The notes under the pieces were generated by a model. The model had not been told where the DNA came from and did no database searches. It saw nothing but the letters and a program-made list of their open reading frames with translations. Made by a program: the position numbers and the translations under genes. A DNA stretch of 23,915 nt, taken from positions 1 to 23,915 of the IMG/VR virus record IMGVR_UViG_2554235190_000005; one strand, 5' to 3'. Source of the DNA: a virus (Duplodnaviria; Heunggongvirae; Uroviricota; Caudoviricetes). Positions 4,233 through 10,976 of this stretch are shown piece after piece. Numbering within the stretch: the stretch's first letter is position 1; the number at the start of each line of letters is the position of its first letter.

Positions 4233-5086
4233 GCACCATCCTGAAATGGGCGGGAAATAAAACCGCCATTATGCCAGAACTGAAAAAATACCTTCCTGCT
4301 GGCCCGCGACTGGTTGAACCTTTCGCGGGTTCCTGTGCTGTGATGATGGAAACGGATTATCCCAGCTATCTGGTTGCGGATATTAATCCTGATTTAATCA
4401 ACCTCTATAAAAAGGTTGCCGCTGATTGTGAATCGTTTATATCTCGCGCCAGAGTTTTATTTGAGATCGCAAACAGGGAGGTGGCTTATTACAACATAAG
4501 GCAGGAGTTTAACTGCTCAACTGAAATTACTGATTTCATGAAAGCGGTATATTTCCTGTATCTTAATCGTCACGGTTACCGTGGTTTATGTCGCTATAAC
4601 AAGAGCGGGCATTTCAACATCCCCTACGGTAATTATAAAAATCCGTATTTCCCTGAAAAAGAACTTCGCACATTTGCAGAAAAAGCCCAGCGAGCAACGT
4701 TTATCTGCGCCAGCTTTGATGAAACGCTGGCGATGTTGAAGGCGGGAGATGTGGTGTATTGCGATCCGCCGTATGACGGTACGTTTTCCGGCTATCACAC
4801 TGATGGTTTCACTGAAGATGACCAGTATCACCTGGCATCCGTTCTTGAACATCGGTCATCAGAAGGACATCCAGTCATTGTTTCTAACAGTGACACATCC
4901 CTGATCCGTTCGCTGTATCGCAATTTTACTCACCACTATATCAAGGTAAAACGCAGCATCGGTGTGGCAGCTGGCGAGGGTAAATCAGCAACAGAAATCA
5001 TTGCTGTTTCCGGGCCGCGCTGCTGGATGGGATTTGATTATTCGCGTGGCGTGGATAGTTCTGCCGTGTACGGAGTACGTGCATGA
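4229..5086 (+). CDS. DNA adenine methyltransferase, Dam/D12 class (N6-adenine MTase)
   Basis: N-terminus [23 protein letters not shown]...[10 protein letters not shown] and a DPPY catalytic motif (..[10 protein letters not shown]..); ATG 4229 overlaps the upstream stop, GGAGGTG RBS. Confidence 0.85.
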
Positions 5087-7497
5087 GTCATGCCGATATG
5101 AACAACTGCTGCGGCTTTAACGAGGCTGCCGCAGCATTCTCATGGAACAGCCCGAAAAAGGCCATTAACCCTTATCTGGACCCGGCGGAAGTTGCGCCGG
5201 TTTCTACGCTTTCAAACCTGATCACTCTGTACGCTGCCGATAACGAGCAGGAACAGTTGCGCCGCGAGGCACTGAGTGATCAGGTCTGGGAGCGTTATTT
5301 CTTTAATGAATCACGTGATCCTGTCCAGCGCGAAATGGAGCAGGATAAGCTCATTAGCCGGGCAAAGCTGGCGCATGAGCAGCAGCGTTTTAATTCAGAC
5401 ATGGTCATTCTGGCGGACGTCAACGCCCAGCCTTCCCATATCAGCAAGCCGCTGATGCAACGTATTGAATACTTCAGCAGCCTGGGCAGGCCAAAGGCTT
5501 ATTCCCGCTATTTACGTGAGACGATTAAGCCATGTCTGGAACGACTGGAGCATGTACGCGACAGTCAGCTATCTGCATCTTTTCGCTTTATGGCAAGCCA
5601 TGAAGGGCTGGACGGCCTGCTGATCCTGCCTGAAATGAGTCAGGATCAGGTGAAACGCCTGTCCACCCTGGTAGCTGCGCATATGAGTATGTGCCTTGAT
5701 GCAGCTTGTGGTGATTTGTATGCCACCGATGACGTTAAGCCAGAAGAAATCCGCAAGACATGGGAAAAGGTGGCAGCGGAAACCCTGCGTCTGGATGTCA
5801 TCCCACCTGCGTTTGAGCAACTCCGTCGGAAAAGAAACCGCCGTAAACCCGTGCCCTATGAACTCATTCCGGGTTCGCTGGCGCGTATGTTGTGCGCCGA
5901 CTGGTGGTACCGGAAATTATGGAAGATGCGTTGCGAATGGCGGGAAGAGCAGTTGCGCGCTGTTTGCCTGGTCAGCAAAAAAGCATCTCCTTATGTCAGC
6001 TATGAAGCCGTGATGCATAAACGTGAGCAGCGCCGTAAGTCGCTGGAGTTTTTCCGTTCTCATGAACTGGTGAACGAAGACGGCGACACGCTGGACATGG
6101 AGGATGTGGTAAACGCCAGCAGCAGCAACCCTGCGCATCGCCGCAATGAGATGATGGCCTGTGTTAAAGGTCTGGAGCTTATCGCGGAAATGCGCGGTGA
6201 CTGCGCCGTTTTCTACACTATCACCTGTCCGTCGCGTTTCCATTCCACGCTAAATAACGGCAGACCAAACCCGACCTGGACAAACGCGACGGTAAGACAA
6301 AGCAGCGATTATCTGGTCGGCATGTTTGCTGCATTTCGTAAGGCGATGCACAAAGCCGGGTTGCGCTGGTATGGCGTGCGGGTGGCTGAGCCGCATCATG
6401 ATGGCACAGTTCACTGGCACCTGTTGTGTTTCATGCGCAAAAAAGACCGCCGTGCCATCACTGCATTACTGCGTAAGTTTGCCATCCGTGAAGACCGCGA
6501 GGAGCTGGGCAATAACACTGGGCCGCGCTTTAAGTCTGAGTTGATTAACCCGCGCAAAGGAACGCCGACAAGCTACATCGCGAAATATATCAGTAAGAAC
6601 ATTGACGGTCGTGGTCTGGCTGGCGAGATCAGCAAGGAAACGGGTAAATCTCTGCGTGATAACGCTGAATACGTGAATGCCTGGGCGTCTCTGCATCGTG
6701 TTCAGCAATTCCGCTTCTTTGGTATTCCGGGGCGTCAGGCTTACCGTGAACTTCGCTTGCTGGCTGGTCAGGCGGCAAGGCAACAGGGTGACAAAAAAGC
6801 AGGTGCGCCGGTACTGGATAACCCGCGTCTTGATGCCATTCTGGCTGCTGCTGATGCTGGTTGTTTTGCCACCTACATCATGAAGCAGGGCGGCGTACTG
6901 GTTCCCCGTAAATATCACCTCATCAGAACCGCTTATGAAATCAACGAAGAGCCGACCGCCTATGGCGATCACGGCATTCGTATTTATGGCATCTGGTCAC
7001 CCATTGCAGAGGGCAAGATCTGCACTCATGCAGTGAAGTGGAAAATGGTTCGTAAAGCCGTTGACGTTCAGGAGGCGGCAGCCGACCAGGGCGCTTGCGC
7101 CCCTTGGACTCGTGGCAATAACTGTCCCCTTGCTGAAAATTTGTACCAACAAGGGAAAGACAAATCAACTGATGGAGATACCAGAACGGATATCACCCGC
7201 ATGGATGACAAGGAGTTGCACGATTACCTGCACAGTATGAGCAAAAAAGAGCGCCGGGAACTGGCAGCAAGGTTACGCCTGGTGAAACCGAAACGGCGTA
7301 AAGACTACAAACAGCGAATTACAGACCATCAGCGACTGCAGCTCGTGTATGAACTGAAGTCCAGGGGATTTGATGGCAGCGAGAAAGAGGTCGATTTACT
7401 GCTTCGCGGCGGCAGTATTCCGTCAGGAGCAGGGCTACGTATCTTCTATCGGAACCAGCGTTTGCAGGAAGATGATAAGTGGCGGAACCTGTATTAA
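5083..7497 (+). CDS. A: Replication initiation protein (P2 gpA-like rolling-circle endonuclease)
   Basis: 804-aa ORF at the end of the early operon; size and position match P2/186 gene A. Start overlaps the dam stop; the true start could be a downstream Met. Confidence 0.8.
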
Positions 7498-7588
7498 TTA
7501 CGCGGGTTAACAATTCGTGCTCTTAATAATACCAGGCATATCAGGCTGATGAACGTAAAAAAACGTTTTACATCAGTAAGATTATCAT

Positions 7589-7608
7589 ATACTGTAAATA
7601 TAAACAGT
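7589..7608. promoter_or_regulatory. LexA box (SOS operator) TACTGTAAATATAAACAGTG overlapping a candidate promoter (TTTACA at 7566-7571)
   Basis: CTGT-N8-ACAG with an AT-rich spacer, close to the consensus TACTGTATATATATACAGTA; about 45 bp upstream of the ATG at 7651. 186 tum is known to be LexA-controlled. Confidence 0.7.
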
Positions 7609-7650
7609 GGTTATCTATACAGTATTGTTTGCGGTGTCATAGGAGGAAAG

Positions 7651-7839
7651 ATGCAGGACTATTTTTTGGAGTCTTTGAAGCTCCAGCGCATTGATTTTTT
7701 TCTTAAGCTTGTAGCGGCTAGTGAGTGTAGTGATGAAGAGAAGGGGCTGGCCCTGCAGTGGGTTTCTGAATTGACTGATGAACTCATGGCAAAAATCAGA
7801 AGCCACGAATACAACCGCTCAATGGATGTCATCAGCTGA
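7651..7839 (+). CDS. SOS-regulated small protein (62 aa), possible Tum-like antirepressor N-terminal module
   Basis: ATG 7651 with AGGAGGA RBS; first gene downstream of the LexA box; followed 10 nt later by a DinI-like gene. Confidence 0.5.
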   Translation: MQDYFLESLKLQRIDFFLKLVAASECSDEEKGLALQWVSELTDELMAKIRSHEYNRSMDVIS

Positions 7840-7849
7840 GGTGACTTTT

Positions 7850-8083
7850 ATGCGCATTGAAATAATGATCGATAAAGAGCAGAAGATTAGCCAGTCTACC
7901 CTGGACGCTCTGGAGTCCGAGCTTTACCGCAACCTGCAACCCATCTATCCCAAGACCGCTATCCGCATCCGTAAAGGGTCGGCAAACGGCGTTGAGCTGA
8001 GTGGCTTAAAGCTTGATGAAGACAAAAAGCGGGTGATGGAAATTATGCAACAGGTTTGGGAAGACGACAGCTGGCTGCACTAA
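7850..8083 (+). CDS. DinI-family protein (Tum C-terminal-like)
   Basis: MRIEIMIDKEQK...LDALESEL...VWEDDSWL resembles E. coli DinI (MRIEVTIAK...ETWESADDWF) in length and motifs; RBS GAGG upstream of ATG 7850. Confidence 0.7.
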   Translation: MRIEIMIDKEQKISQSTLDALESELYRNLQPIYPKTAIRIRKGSANGVELSGLKLDEDKKRVMEIMQQVWEDDSWLH

Positions 8084-8156
8084 GGAACGTTCCTGATGTA
8101 AGAACTTGAATCTGACGTCAGCAAGGTTGAACAACGAGAGTAGCGAGGCGTTAGCC

Positions 8157-8417
8157 ATGGGTAAAAAAGACAGTAATCACCAGATTATTTATCGGGGCTA
8201 GGTGCTGGAACGTTTAACCCTTGGCGACTGGGTCTTCTTTCAACGCCCAAAGGAGTGTGGCGGAGGTTTTTGGTTGGGCCGCATCTATGAAGACTGCTTC
8301 TGGCTTGAGCTGGAATTCCCCGTTTCGCTATATGACGGCCTGGGGTTTTTGATGGAAGTCACTAGGGTAGAGCAGAGAAGTGATGAGGTTGACGCGAATT
8401 ATCCCCTGTTTGATTAA
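8157..8417 (+). pseudogene. Hypothetical gene interrupted by an in-frame amber codon (TAG at 8199-8201)
   Basis: ATG 8157 with GAGG RBS opens a frame that hits TAG after 14 codons and continues in the same frame as the track ORF 8202..8417 (GTG start, weak RBS). Confidence 0.4.
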
Positions 8418-8465
8418 AAATGTATTAGCTTATAATGGAATACTATTTTTGCAGGTGGGGGCGCA

Positions 8466-9077
8466 ATGGATTTAGTCTTTAAAGTTCTGGCTTCGTTGGG
8501 TGGGGTGTCTTTTGTTGCATCTGGCATATTTGTTTGGATCGGGAAAGTTTATTTAGAAAGATATAAGTCGCGGCTAAACAAAGATATTGCTGAATTTCAA
8601 TCACAACTGAGTGCAACTAATGAAAGAATAAAGGCTAAGTTAGACAATTCTGTTTATGTAACGAAAGCGTATTTTGATAAGGAGTTATCAGCATATAGTC
8701 TCATTTGGAATTCGATGTTTGAAACCAGAGAAAGCGTGCTTAAGCTGAGGCCTGCGCTGGATCATGTTGACCCCAACGAACCATTTGAAGAGAGAAAATT
8801 TAGAAGGTTGAAAGTTTTTTCTGATGCATTTAACACTTTTGTTACAAGTGTTGAATCTAACAAACCGTTCATCTCACCAGAGGTTTATATAATCTTGGAC
8901 CGTTTCCGGAAGGAATGCCTTTCAGAGTCAATATCGTTTAAGCATAGCGATCCAGAATTTGACGGGCAAAATTATTGGAAAGAGGCGGAGTTGAACCATA
9001 CAACCATCATCAAGCTTTTTGATGAGACGTGTGATGCAATTCGAGACAGGATGCACACATTAACTGTGGTTACGTAG
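8466..9077 (+). CDS. Membrane-anchored hypothetical protein (203 aa), AT-rich cargo
   Basis: N-terminal transmembrane-like helix (LASLGGVSFVASGIFVWIG) then a charged soluble domain; strongly AT-rich versus the phage backbone; TTATAAT-like -10 element upstream. Confidence 0.6.
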   Translation: MDLVFKVLASLGGVSFVASGIFVWIGKVYLERYKSRLNKDIAEFQSQLSATNERIKAKLDNSVYVTKAYFDKELSAYSLIWNSMFETRESVLKLRPALDHVDPNEPFEERKFRRLKVFSDAFNTFVTSVESNKPFISPEVYIILDRFRKECLSESISFKHSDPEFDGQNYWKEAELNHTTIIKLFDETCDAIRDRMHTLTVVT

Positions 9078-9237
9078 GTTTCCAAAAAGTCTCGATGCCC
9101 GCTTTGGAGATTGTGCATGTCTATGCCGCATGAATCCGCATGATCGTTTGAGGATCGTTTTAGCTGAGGCCCGCCAGGAGTGGCGGGATTTTGCTTATGT
9201 CATGCAGGCGCATGAAAACCGCTACATAAAGCGGGCA

Positions 9238-9256
9238 GGCGTGGCGGGGATACGAG
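9238..9256. other. Candidate cos site (19-nt cohesive-end sequence GGCGTGGCGGGGATACGAG followed by GCGCGCGC)
   Basis: From memory, P2 and 186 cohesive ends begin GGCGAGGCGGGGA / GGCGTGGCGGGGA; this is the only such match in the window and sits in a GC-rich non-coding gap between A-side cargo and Q, where cos is expected. Confidence 0.5.
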
Positions 9257-9293
9257 CGCGCGCTTATTACTTTGATAGTACTCGGGTTATAAT

Positions 9294-10976
9294 ATGGATG
9301 ACTATCTATCTCGGAGAATGTGCATGTCATTGGACTATATCAAAGAACAGTTGTCAGACTTTATTTCATCTGCAGAACCTGAGGTAATGGCTATTCAGGG
9401 TGAGTGGGGGATTGGGAAAACCTATACTTGGAATACTTTCTTAAAGGAAAATAAAAATAAGATTGCATTTAATAGATATAGTTACGTCTCTCTTTTTGGT
9501 GTTAATTCATTGGACGCATTAAAATACTCCATCTTTGAAAATACAATTACAAAAGATTTTATTGGAAATAAACCTAATTTAAAAACAGCAACACAAAATG
9601 CAAAGGGGCTTCTTGAATCCTGCACTAGAAAGACCGCTCGTGTGTTAAAAGAAACACCTGTTGTGAAAAATTTTACTACGACACTTGAGTCAATGTCATT
9701 TATGTCAATTACTAATGTTATTGTAGTCATAGATGACTTAGAAAGACGTGGTAAAAATTTAGAAGTGAAAGATGTCTTAGGGTTGGTTTCTTTATTGAAA
9801 GAACAAAAAAATTGTAAGGTGGTTCTTTTACTTAATAATGGGACAAGTGGTATGGATGACTACTCCACTTATAAAGAAAAGGTTATTGATAGAGAGATTA
9901 CCTATAACCCTACGCCAGAAGAATGTGCAGCTATAGCATATAAAAATGATTCTGATGTTCATAAATTATTAAGCAAATACTCCATTTCTCTAGGTATTAA
10001 AAATATTCGTATACTGAAAAAAATAGAGCGGTTTTTGCTAGCCTTGTTACCTGGTATTAACGTTAATTTTGATAAAATTGCAAATGAAGTCGCACGCTCC
10101 TTAACTTTGTATTGTTGGAGTCATTACGCATTTACTCCAGATGGAGATGTACCATCATTGGAGTATATTAGAAATATGAGAAATATCTATATGCGTGATG
10201 AAAAAGAGGATGGAAAAGAAAAAAAATGGCATAATACTTTGCTTATATATGGTTATAAAAAAACAAACGAACTTGATGAAGTCCTTATAGACATGGTTAA
10301 GCATGGATATATTGATATGAATAATTTTCAAAGGCAAGTAAGTCTAAGGAATGATGAACTTATCCGTGATAGTAAGCGAGGTTCACTGTTTGAAGCATGG
10401 AAGCTTTTCTATAATTCATTTGAAGATAACCGAAATCAGGTTGTTGATAATCTATATCAAGCGGTGGTTGGTGGGATAGAGTATGTAACTCCAAGTGACT
10501 TGGATAGTGTTGTCGGACTGTATAGAGATTTAGATGAAAATATTAAAGCAAGTGAATTAATAAGTAAATTTATTAATTACGGCAATGATGCTCTTAAGGA
10601 ATATGTCCAATCTATTTACATGAATGTTCATCCTATAAAAGATGCTGAGTTAAAGTCAAAAATCCAAGATTATTCTACTAATTTAAATCTGGATGGTTCT
10701 ATAAAGGATGTTCTAATAAAATTATCAAGTCAGAATGGTTGGTCTGATAGGCACGAGGAAATATTGGATGCTGCCTCAGAGGGTGACTACTATGATTTAT
10801 TTAAAAAAGTCATTCTTGAAGGTGGTGATTCAATAATAGCCACTGCTCTTAAGTTTGGTGGGTATAGCAATGGTTCAGATAGAATGAAACGCATCGGAGA
10901 AAAAGCGAGAAATGCTTTGATAAGAATTGGAAATGAGTCGAAGATTAATAAAATACGTGTTAGACGGTATTTGTAA
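9294..10976 (+). CDS. KAP-family P-loop NTPase (560 aa), AT-rich cargo; candidate defence / abortive-infection protein
   Basis: Walker A GEWGIGKTYTWN and Walker B-like VIVVIDDLER in the KAP arrangement; very AT-rich; the true start may be the ATG at 9324 (GGAG about 9 nt upstream). Confidence 0.8.
   Translation: MDDYLSRRMCMSLDYIKEQLSDFISSAEPEVMAIQGEWGIGKTYTWNTFLKENKNKIAFNRYSYVSLFGVNSLDALKYSIFENTITKDFIGNKPNLKTATQNAKGLLESCTRKTARVLKETPVVKNFTTTLESMSFMSITNVIVVIDDLERRGKNLEVKDVLGLVSLLKEQKNCKVVLLLNNGTSGMDDYSTYKEKVIDREITYNPTPEECAAIAYKNDSDVHKLLSKYSISLGIKNIRILKKIERFLLALLPGINVNFDKIANEVARSLTLYCWSHYAFTPDGDVPSLEYIRNMRNIYMRDEKEDGKEKKWHNTLLIYGYKKTNELDEVLIDMVKHGYIDMNNFQRQVSLRNDELIRDSKRGSLFEAWKLFYNSFEDNRNQVVDNLYQAVVGGIEYVTPSDLDSVVGLYRDLDENIKASELISKFINYGNDALKEYVQSIYMNVHPIKDAELKSKIQDYSTNLNLDGSIKDVLIKLSSQNGWSDRHEEILDAASEGDYYDLFKKVILEGGDSIIATALKFGGYSNGSDRMKRIGEKARNALIRIGNESKINKIRVRRYL

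Follow-up and report, generated by a model that had tools for sequence, protein, structure and literature searches.

In phage 186 the Tum protein is a fusion of an antirepressor with DinI, while Fels-2 and PSP3 have it divided between an antirepressor gene and dinI, under LexA control (Lemire et al. 2011, PMC3121763). A second described system that bears on the locus reported here is the original lacI amber hotspot, in which CAG changes to TAG within CCAGG (Coulondre, Miller, Farabaugh, and Gilbert 1978; reviewed in PMC12606429); the chemistry of such hotspots is the deamination of 5-methylcytosine to thymine (PMC12606429), and repair of the very-short-patch (VSP) type belongs to the same context (PMC2715241). 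Here we analyze a stretch of 23,915 nucleotides (nt) from IMG/VR virus record IMGVR_UViG_2554235190_000005 (Caudoviricetes), referred to below as the window, in which an open reading frame (ORF) at positions 8157-8417 of the + strand is split by an in-frame amber codon. The window is from a P2-like Escherichia coli prophage of the 186/Fels-2 branch, with phage Cartapus and the LF82 prophage (Peduoviridae, Elveevirus) as its closest relatives. We consider it quite probable that the split frame is the third gene of a prophage SOS operon, a member of protein family PHROG 2100, and that it was knocked out by a C-to-T amber mutation at a Dcm site, leaving a null or strongly hypomorphic allele of a gene that the prophage can do without.

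The frame begins at ATG 8157, which follows a Shine-Dalgarno (SD) sequence, GAGG at 8145-8148, at a spacing of 8 nt; the duplex of this element with the anti-SD at the 16S 3' end has a predicted energy of -6.4 kcal/mol. Fourteen codons from the native start (MGKKDSNHQIIYRG; 8157-8201, + strand) lead to the amber TAG at 8199-8201, and the remaining 71 codons (8202-8417, + strand) run from native Val16, read from GTG 8202, to Asp86 and the TAA at 8415-8417. The positions of ATG 8157, of the TAG, and of GTG 8202, the lengths of the two parts, and the good SD sequence of ATG 8157 had been given by an earlier sequence-only reading of the window and were borne out. When we searched with the intact, full-length homologue from LF82 and Cartapus, it matched PHROG 2100 almost end to end (E = 4.8e-40, profile positions 1-84 of 85), and the 71-residue part encoded in the window matched the same profile at positions 17-84 (E = 1.4e-28). 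Judging from these matches, the two parts are not ORFs paired by chance, and the joined 8157-8417 frame is an 86-residue phage protein of PHROG 2100, a family of about 85 residues whose function is not known. Members of the family have an uninterrupted ORF of about 84 to 88 residues; the window copy has the N-terminal motif and a TAG at codon 15, and is by this comparison a disrupted rather than an intact member.

A database search returned 64 relatives, mostly 84 to 86 residues long, from Escherichia, Citrobacter, Enterobacter, Raoultella, Pantoea, Salmonella, Cronobacter, Serratia, and others. The N-terminus belongs to the best-conserved parts of the protein in an alignment of 43 full-length members, in which M1, Y12, and R13 are invariant and Q9 and G14 nearly so, and the motif MGxKDxNxQ[IV][IV]YRG is conserved across Enterobacterales. 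The intact copies among 34 species-representative loci begin at the equivalent of ATG 8157, and the GCGAGGCGTTAGCC-ATG motif is kept in the P2-like contexts of other genera. Because the N-terminus is conserved in the aligned members and intact copies start at the equivalent ATG, the 14 codons are, on this evidence, part of the gene and not a separate small ORF. The sequence-only reading had named two findings that would speak otherwise, namely, orthologues that begin at the equivalent of GTG 8202 behind unrelated upstream sequence and independent conservation of the 14-codon ORF. Neither was found, and the 14 codons align with the N-terminus of the family.

We found a sense codon, CAG (Gln), at the equivalent of 8199-8201 in LF82, phage Cartapus, TW10598, tcmA_3, and 28A18CPO003A, as the sequence-only reading had suggested orthologues might show, and its proposal of a nonsense mutation in an accessory prophage gene is borne out by these alleles, by the conserved N-terminus, and by the start of orthologues at the equivalent of ATG 8157. 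The closest intact allele (P0083, loci L067-L071) differs from the window over the whole of 7902-8522 only by a C in place of the T at 8199. In these alignments, then, the amber is one transition away from an extant intact allele. This single step fits the description of the mutation as recent, a description that holds less well for an allele that, as shown below, is widespread and probably arose more than once.

At this point, the sequence of intact alleles is GGC CAG GTG, so that 8198-8202 form CCAGG in these alleles and a mutated Dcm site, CTAGG, in the window (+ strand); position 8199 is the second C of the site, the one that Dcm methylates. Thus, two features of a Dcm hotspot mutation are present, a C-to-T transition and its location at the second C of CCWGG. 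Within the gene, there are nine differences between the window and LF82, and three of them (8199, 8221, and 8363) are C-to-T changes at the second C of a CCWGG, although only 8 such target positions are found in the 261 nt (binomial P of about 0.002, by our own calculation). The change at 8221 replaces Pro22 with Leu, and that at 8363 is synonymous; outside the gene, position 7901 is another C/T site at the second C of a CCWGG (CCTGG/CTTGG) when the window is compared to locus L067. These comparisons suggest that part of the diversity seen in this block stems from Dcm-site deamination. We infer that the change at 8199 was caused by deamination of 5-methylcytosine at the Dcm site, by which codon 15 would have passed from CAG to TAG through one C-to-T transition at the methylated C of CCAGG.

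The sequence-only reading had raised the possibility of a sequencing error, which is contradicted by the distribution of the allele. Of the 41 complete E. coli genomes with the locus, 21 share an identical 63-nt stretch that includes the TAG; they come from unrelated human, pig, chicken, dog, and water sources and include a clonal set of seven isolates from dogs and room floors. The exact 71-residue product is also indexed in 317 blocks of a large collection, and all 10 further assemblies that we read from those blocks have ATG...TAG GTG, each with different contents in the adjacent cargo hotspot: a DUF4325 pair, STM3845 with a reverse transcriptase, an ATPase with SIR2, AIPR, DUF4145, a 416-residue AAA protein, and, in the four others, uncharacterized genes only. 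Of the four carriers of the window-type amber first read in complete genomes, 504237 also has a P-loop nucleoside triphosphatase (NTPase), as the window does, and each of the remaining three has either other contents or none at all. In total, 12 different cargo contents were found among the 14 other carrier loci read. Neither sequencing error nor a private mutation accounts for the amber allele.

The nine further amber loci that lack an insertion of the insertion sequence IS1 allow the block around the gene to be compared to its left neighbor. Their gpA alleles differ from that of the window by 19 to 137 nt, while the 7500-9077 interval in the same loci is 0 to 4 nt from the window. Homology between loci with different cargo stops at about 9264, and the 1.6-kb block at 7500-9077 behaves like a homogenized recombination arm of the hotspot. 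In one amber carrier, L057 (GCA_000408105.1), a fragment of an IS1 transposase lies between gpA and the tum-like ORF described below.

The same TAG was also found on a second haplotype. Loci L063 and L064, reached through a 71-residue protein (P0069, 25 index blocks), have an LF82-type haplotype and differ from LF82 within the gene solely at the amber base. Compared to the window, these two loci differ at nine sites (8110, 8213, 8216, 8221, 8227, 8284, 8344, 8363, and 8403), of which 8110 and 8213 are the nearest to the TAG on either side. The TAG therefore probably arose at least twice, and we favor a second hit at the hotspot as the source of the second occurrence. A 71-residue protein of Citrobacter amalonaticus (P0024), which starts at the same Val16, might be a third independent truncation.

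In the proposed sequence of events, ribosomes that start at ATG 8157 would release a 14-residue peptide, and the full-length protein would be lost. An AlphaFold2 model of the intact protein (mean predicted local distance difference test score of 83) has strands at residues 8-11, 25-29, 38-44, and 47-50 and a C-terminal helix at 58-75. The allele is predicted to be null or strongly hypomorphic because the amber removes the first strand (residues 8-11) together with the invariant Y12 and R13. Restart at GTG 8202, by a minority of the terminating ribosomes at most, would yield a 71-residue fragment without the conserved N-terminal strand.

Such a restart is the core of a different explanation, in which the 71-residue protein is functional, made either by reinitiation at GTG 8202 or by direct initiation from the SD-like GGGG at 8194-8197 (+ strand), and the allele is maintained for this reason. 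The geometry is that of termination-reinitiation, with the TAG and GTG adjacent and the GGGG 4 nt ahead of the GTG (duplex energy of -5.0 kcal/mol, versus -6.4 kcal/mol for the native start), and post-termination bacterial ribosomes can scan and restart at nearby starts that are preceded by an SD sequence (PMC5972666). In addition, all 13 loci read with the window-type amber have the same, uninterrupted 71-codon frame, the amber allele is common, and the 71-residue ORF is annotated by RefSeq in some genomes. However, the GGGG (part of the codons CGG GGC) and the GTG are ordinary codons of the intact alleles as well, and no compensatory change accompanies the amber. The identity of the frame is uninformative, since the whole 7500-9077 block is nearly identical and there has been no time for decay; for the same reason, the ratio of nonsynonymous to synonymous substitution rates over the 71 codons has no power, the amber block being almost invariant. 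A GTG after a 4-nt spacer is a weak start, and the stronger internal site, TTG 8274 (GGAGG, -10.2 kcal/mol), would yield a product of just 47 residues. The fragment itself would be without the conserved N-terminus, the predicted first beta-strand, and the invariant Y12 and R13. We therefore regard a functional, maintained 71-residue protein as unlikely. The sequence-only reading had offered, as its other possibility, a gene that now starts at the weak GTG 8202; the abutting TAG and GTG and the upstream GGGG are indeed in place, but we found no positive evidence for such a gene, whose product would have neither Y12 nor R13.

It is also conceivable that full-length protein is still made by decoding of the TAG, whether through programmed read-through or with a suppressor tRNA from host or phage. 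A glutamine-inserting amber suppressor of the supE type would correct exactly this change, CAG to TAG, to wild type, although supE is not known to be a regular feature of natural isolates. Read-through or reassignment would be expected to leave a conserved stop together with a suppressor tRNA or a stimulatory RNA element. We found instead that the stop is not conserved, with CAG in relatives, that there is no tRNA gene in the window and no Rfam element, and that the RNA structure around the stop is not unusual (fold z of -0.87). All other long ORFs in the window are intact under code 11 with standard stops. On this evidence, decoding of the TAG can be given hardly any weight.

The reading as a knockout implies a gene that prophages can lose, and several observations agree with this. 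Among the 34 species-representative copies, about nine (L015, L023, L034, L040, L043, L045, L047, L048, and L049) are independently disrupted by stops, frameshifts, or loss of the N-terminus. The in-frame stops are in Citrobacter pasteurii and Kluyvera sichuanensis, the frameshifts are in Raoultella, Citrobacter sp. OP27, and Pantoea sp. BAV 3049 (second copy), and truncations are found elsewhere. In E. coli, two alleles, L003 (TW10598) and L004 (tcmA_3), have lost the start codon by a change of ATG to AAG at the equivalent of 8157-8159, which by sequence is a second, independent route of gene loss. RefSeq annotates these two genes from an upstream TTG (equivalent to 8106) with a very weak SD sequence (-1.4 kcal/mol), and tcmA_3 has a 6-nt insertion just ahead of the old start. 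Thus, the PHROG 2100 gene looks dispensable, and a gene dispensable for the prophage would have allowed the amber allele to persist and spread.

The frequency of loss also raises the question of positive selection, in which the lysogen or the phage would gain from losing or down-tuning an SOS-induced protein, as might be so if its induction carried a cost or were toxic. The amber is present in about half of the complete genomes with the locus (the 21 of 41 given above), with two start codon losses in addition, it recurs on a second haplotype, about one-quarter of the copies in other species are disrupted as well, and the amber block is linked to the 12 cargo contents and to diverse gpA alleles. 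Counts from complete genomes nevertheless include the clonal set of seven isolates, and the larger collection has more contigs with intact alleles (at least 1,000 for one and 928 for another) than with the amber forms (300, 93, and 25, counts that are too low because many gene callers skip the ORF). Mutation pressure at a hotspot, together with neutrality, explains the recurrence without selection, and no phenotype of the gene is known. We consider a selected amber to be improbable.

A more speculative extension is that codon 15 acts as a two-way switch with elevated rates in both directions, in which Dcm deamination would turn the SOS-induced protein off and Vsr very-short-patch repair of CTAGG to CCAGG would turn it on, so that a population would hold both states, and/or that the 71-residue restart product is a functional short isoform. 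Two observations hint in this direction, namely, that each of two different haplotypes is known from nature in an exact on and an exact off version and that the off state is frequent; we think that there is little chance of this being the case.

We next consider the surroundings that place the gene in an SOS operon. A LexA (SOS) box, TACTGTAAATATAAACAGTG, is at 7590-7609 (+ strand) and is the sole exact CTGT-N8-ACAG in the whole window. It lies 42 nt upstream of a 62-residue ORF (7651-7839, + strand; PHROG 698, E = 5.9e-38) and about 550 nt upstream of ATG 8157. We take the 62-residue ORF, which shares 96.8% identity with the ORF that precedes dinI in Fels-2, to be the first gene of the operon and a tum-like antirepressor half. 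A longer version of this ORF from ATG 7549 would cross the LexA box and is unlikely to have the real start. The second gene, at 7850-8083 (+ strand), is of the DinI family (Pfam PF06183, E = 2e-24; RefSeq "DinI family protein"). The arrangement of a predicted LexA operator, a tum-type sequence, and then a DinI-like sequence is that of the SOS operon of the 186/Fels-2 type. With the LexA box, the Fels-2-like tum half, and dinI ahead of it, the PHROG 2100 gene most likely occupies third place in a LexA-controlled prophage SOS operon. We found no convincing terminator between 7609 and 8417, and cotranscription of the PHROG 2100 gene with tum and dinI would be expected from this layout.

The association with LexA extends well beyond the window. 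We examined 31 homologue loci in other genera (L010 and L014-L049) and found an exact LexA box at most 700 nt upstream in 28 of them and a box with one mismatch, at the same offsets, in the other 3. Seventeen boxes are 20 to 60 nt before the ATG, at stand-alone genes in lambdoid and other prophages, and nine are about 550 to 590 nt upstream, ahead of a dinI-containing operon, in P2-like contexts. There were 31 LexA boxes in the 21.7 kb upstream of the homologues, compared to 1 in the remaining 234 kb. This regularity was found in the present analysis and is not part of the definition of PHROG 2100; an association with LexA had been noted once before, for phiBZS1_p37 of Serratia phage vB_SspM_BZS1 (PMC7556043). 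It marks PHROG 2100 as a conserved, uncharacterized family of phage proteins that are predicted to be SOS induced.

No observation speaks against the nonsense mutation itself, but our account of the locus as a Dcm-site knockout of a third operon gene is weaker at several points. A promoter scan found no canonical promoter at the LexA-controlled region. The attribution of the change at 8199 to deamination is drawn from its sequence context and not from direct observation. The TAG on the second haplotype could be the product of a gene conversion tract of less than 103 nt and not of a second mutation. Loss of function is deduced from conservation and from the predicted strand at residues 8-11, and a restart product, itself plausible, could keep part of the activity. 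Finally, the wide spread of the allele would fit neutrality, hitchhiking with defense cargo, or an advantage.

As to what the PHROG 2100 protein might do, our searches returned no relationship to a described family. A profile search of 1.84 billion representatives found 107 clusters, all of small proteins, which indicates a narrow family, and showed no link to a larger one. There was no significant Pfam match for the protein or for any of the 43 aligned members, no significant match in PADLOC or in a profile search of PDB sequences, and no significant Foldseek match of the model in PDB or BFVD. The label "DUF2829" that UniRef gives to one Pantoea homologue is unsupported by Pfam scans. Identity with the small antirepressors of the Gifsy type (GfoA, GftA, and FsoA) was considered and rejected, an hhalign comparison of the PHROG 2100 family profile to Gifsy-2 GftA (STM1020.1n) giving a probability of 0.4%. 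Kinship with IrsA was also rejected, as there is no similarity, and the 202-residue gene beside the Salmonella homologue is related neither to IrsA nor to the 203-residue gene that follows the PHROG 2100 gene in the window. The Gifsy-1 genes STM14_3218-3220 (PMC9879122) have other sizes and are unrelated.

The operon region is preceded by the gene for the gpA replication endonuclease (5083-7497, + strand). Downstream of the PHROG 2100 gene is the 203-residue gene (8466-9077, + strand; PHROG 26391), whose product has a hydrophobic N-terminus and which adjoins the PHROG 2100 gene in every E. coli locus read; it may be the last gene of the same transcript. Because the 8202-8465 interval is G rich and C poor (base content of 0.30 G and 0.18 C), a strong Rho-dependent polar effect of the amber on this gene is unlikely. 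The Prokaryotic Genome Annotation Pipeline name of the 203-residue gene in many RefSeq genomes, "valyl-tRNA synthetase," is a misnomer, the only apparent basis of which is a subthreshold match to the coiled-coil family PF10458 (E = 0.009, 16.7 bits versus a cutoff of 25.9). The gene is absent from P2-like loci of Citrobacter and Enterobacter, where the PHROG 2100 gene stands directly before a homologue of the ORF at 9130.

This last ORF (9130-9387, 85 residues, MNPHDRLRIV...) contains a terminator-like GC hairpin with a T-run at 9170-9187 (+ strand), in the last conserved stretch before the cargo; the hairpin is a candidate operon end and may terminate the SOS operon. The 5' part of the ORF is conserved beside PHROG 2100 genes in other genera, and in the window the ORF overlaps the start of the gene for a 560-residue KAP-family P-loop NTPase (9294-10976, + strand; Pfam PF07693, E = 5e-9; PADLOC candidate PDC-S49, E = 1.5e-25). 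The NTPase gene is hotspot cargo, and the portal and terminase genes come after it on the - strand; the interval from gpA to portal is a known defense hotspot of P2-like phages (PMC9122126). The region of the NTPase gene has a GC content of 31 to 34%, and in prophages whose left flank is nearly identical, at least 12 other contents occupy this slot.

The amber is in itself an ordinary knockout, by a known mechanism, of a dispensable prophage gene from an uncharacterized family. Its value is as a clean natural case of the Dcm/5-methylcytosine amber hotspot in wild E. coli prophages, with the alleles before and after the change available on two haplotypes, and the paired intact and amber alleles are ready natural isogenic material for probing the role of the protein in prophage induction. 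For annotators, the locus should be read as a disrupted gene; its treatment in RefSeq now varies, with a 71-residue hypothetical protein (WP_000893653.1 or WP_000893652.1) in some records and no annotation in others. The most useful by-product of the analysis is the LexA box upstream of every homologue examined, in P2-like, lambdoid, and other prophages.

Compared to the described cases of bacterial translational reinitiation by 70S scanning (Adhin and van Duin 1990; Yamamoto et al. 2016; reviewed in PMC5972666), the window has a similar layout, in that its stop abuts a GTG with an SD-like GGGG just upstream, but this arrangement is an accident of ordinary codons and not a conserved signal for coupling. 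The likeness to the lacI hotspots is closer, since both involve CAG to TAG by a G:C-to-A:T change at the second C of CCAGG, and here, too, the same site was probably hit more than once, on two haplotypes. The lacI mutants were obtained in the laboratory, however, while the amber described here is a natural prophage polymorphism in wild E. coli, and its cause is read from sequence context. The Serratia phage gene phiBZS1_p37 is a homologue with 49% identity, over a match that lies within p37, and also has a LexA motif upstream. It is a solitary gene with a LexA box of its own, near the integrase gene, in contrast to the window copy, which lies behind tum and dinI and is of intact length only if joined across the amber. 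With the SOS operons of 186, Fels-2, and PSP3, the window shares the LexA box, the tum-like ORF, a separate dinI, and the location behind gpA, at the early region's right end. The PHROG 2100 gene had no tblastn match in phage 186 among the phage records listed, and the operon in the window differs from these systems by the presence of this extra third gene.

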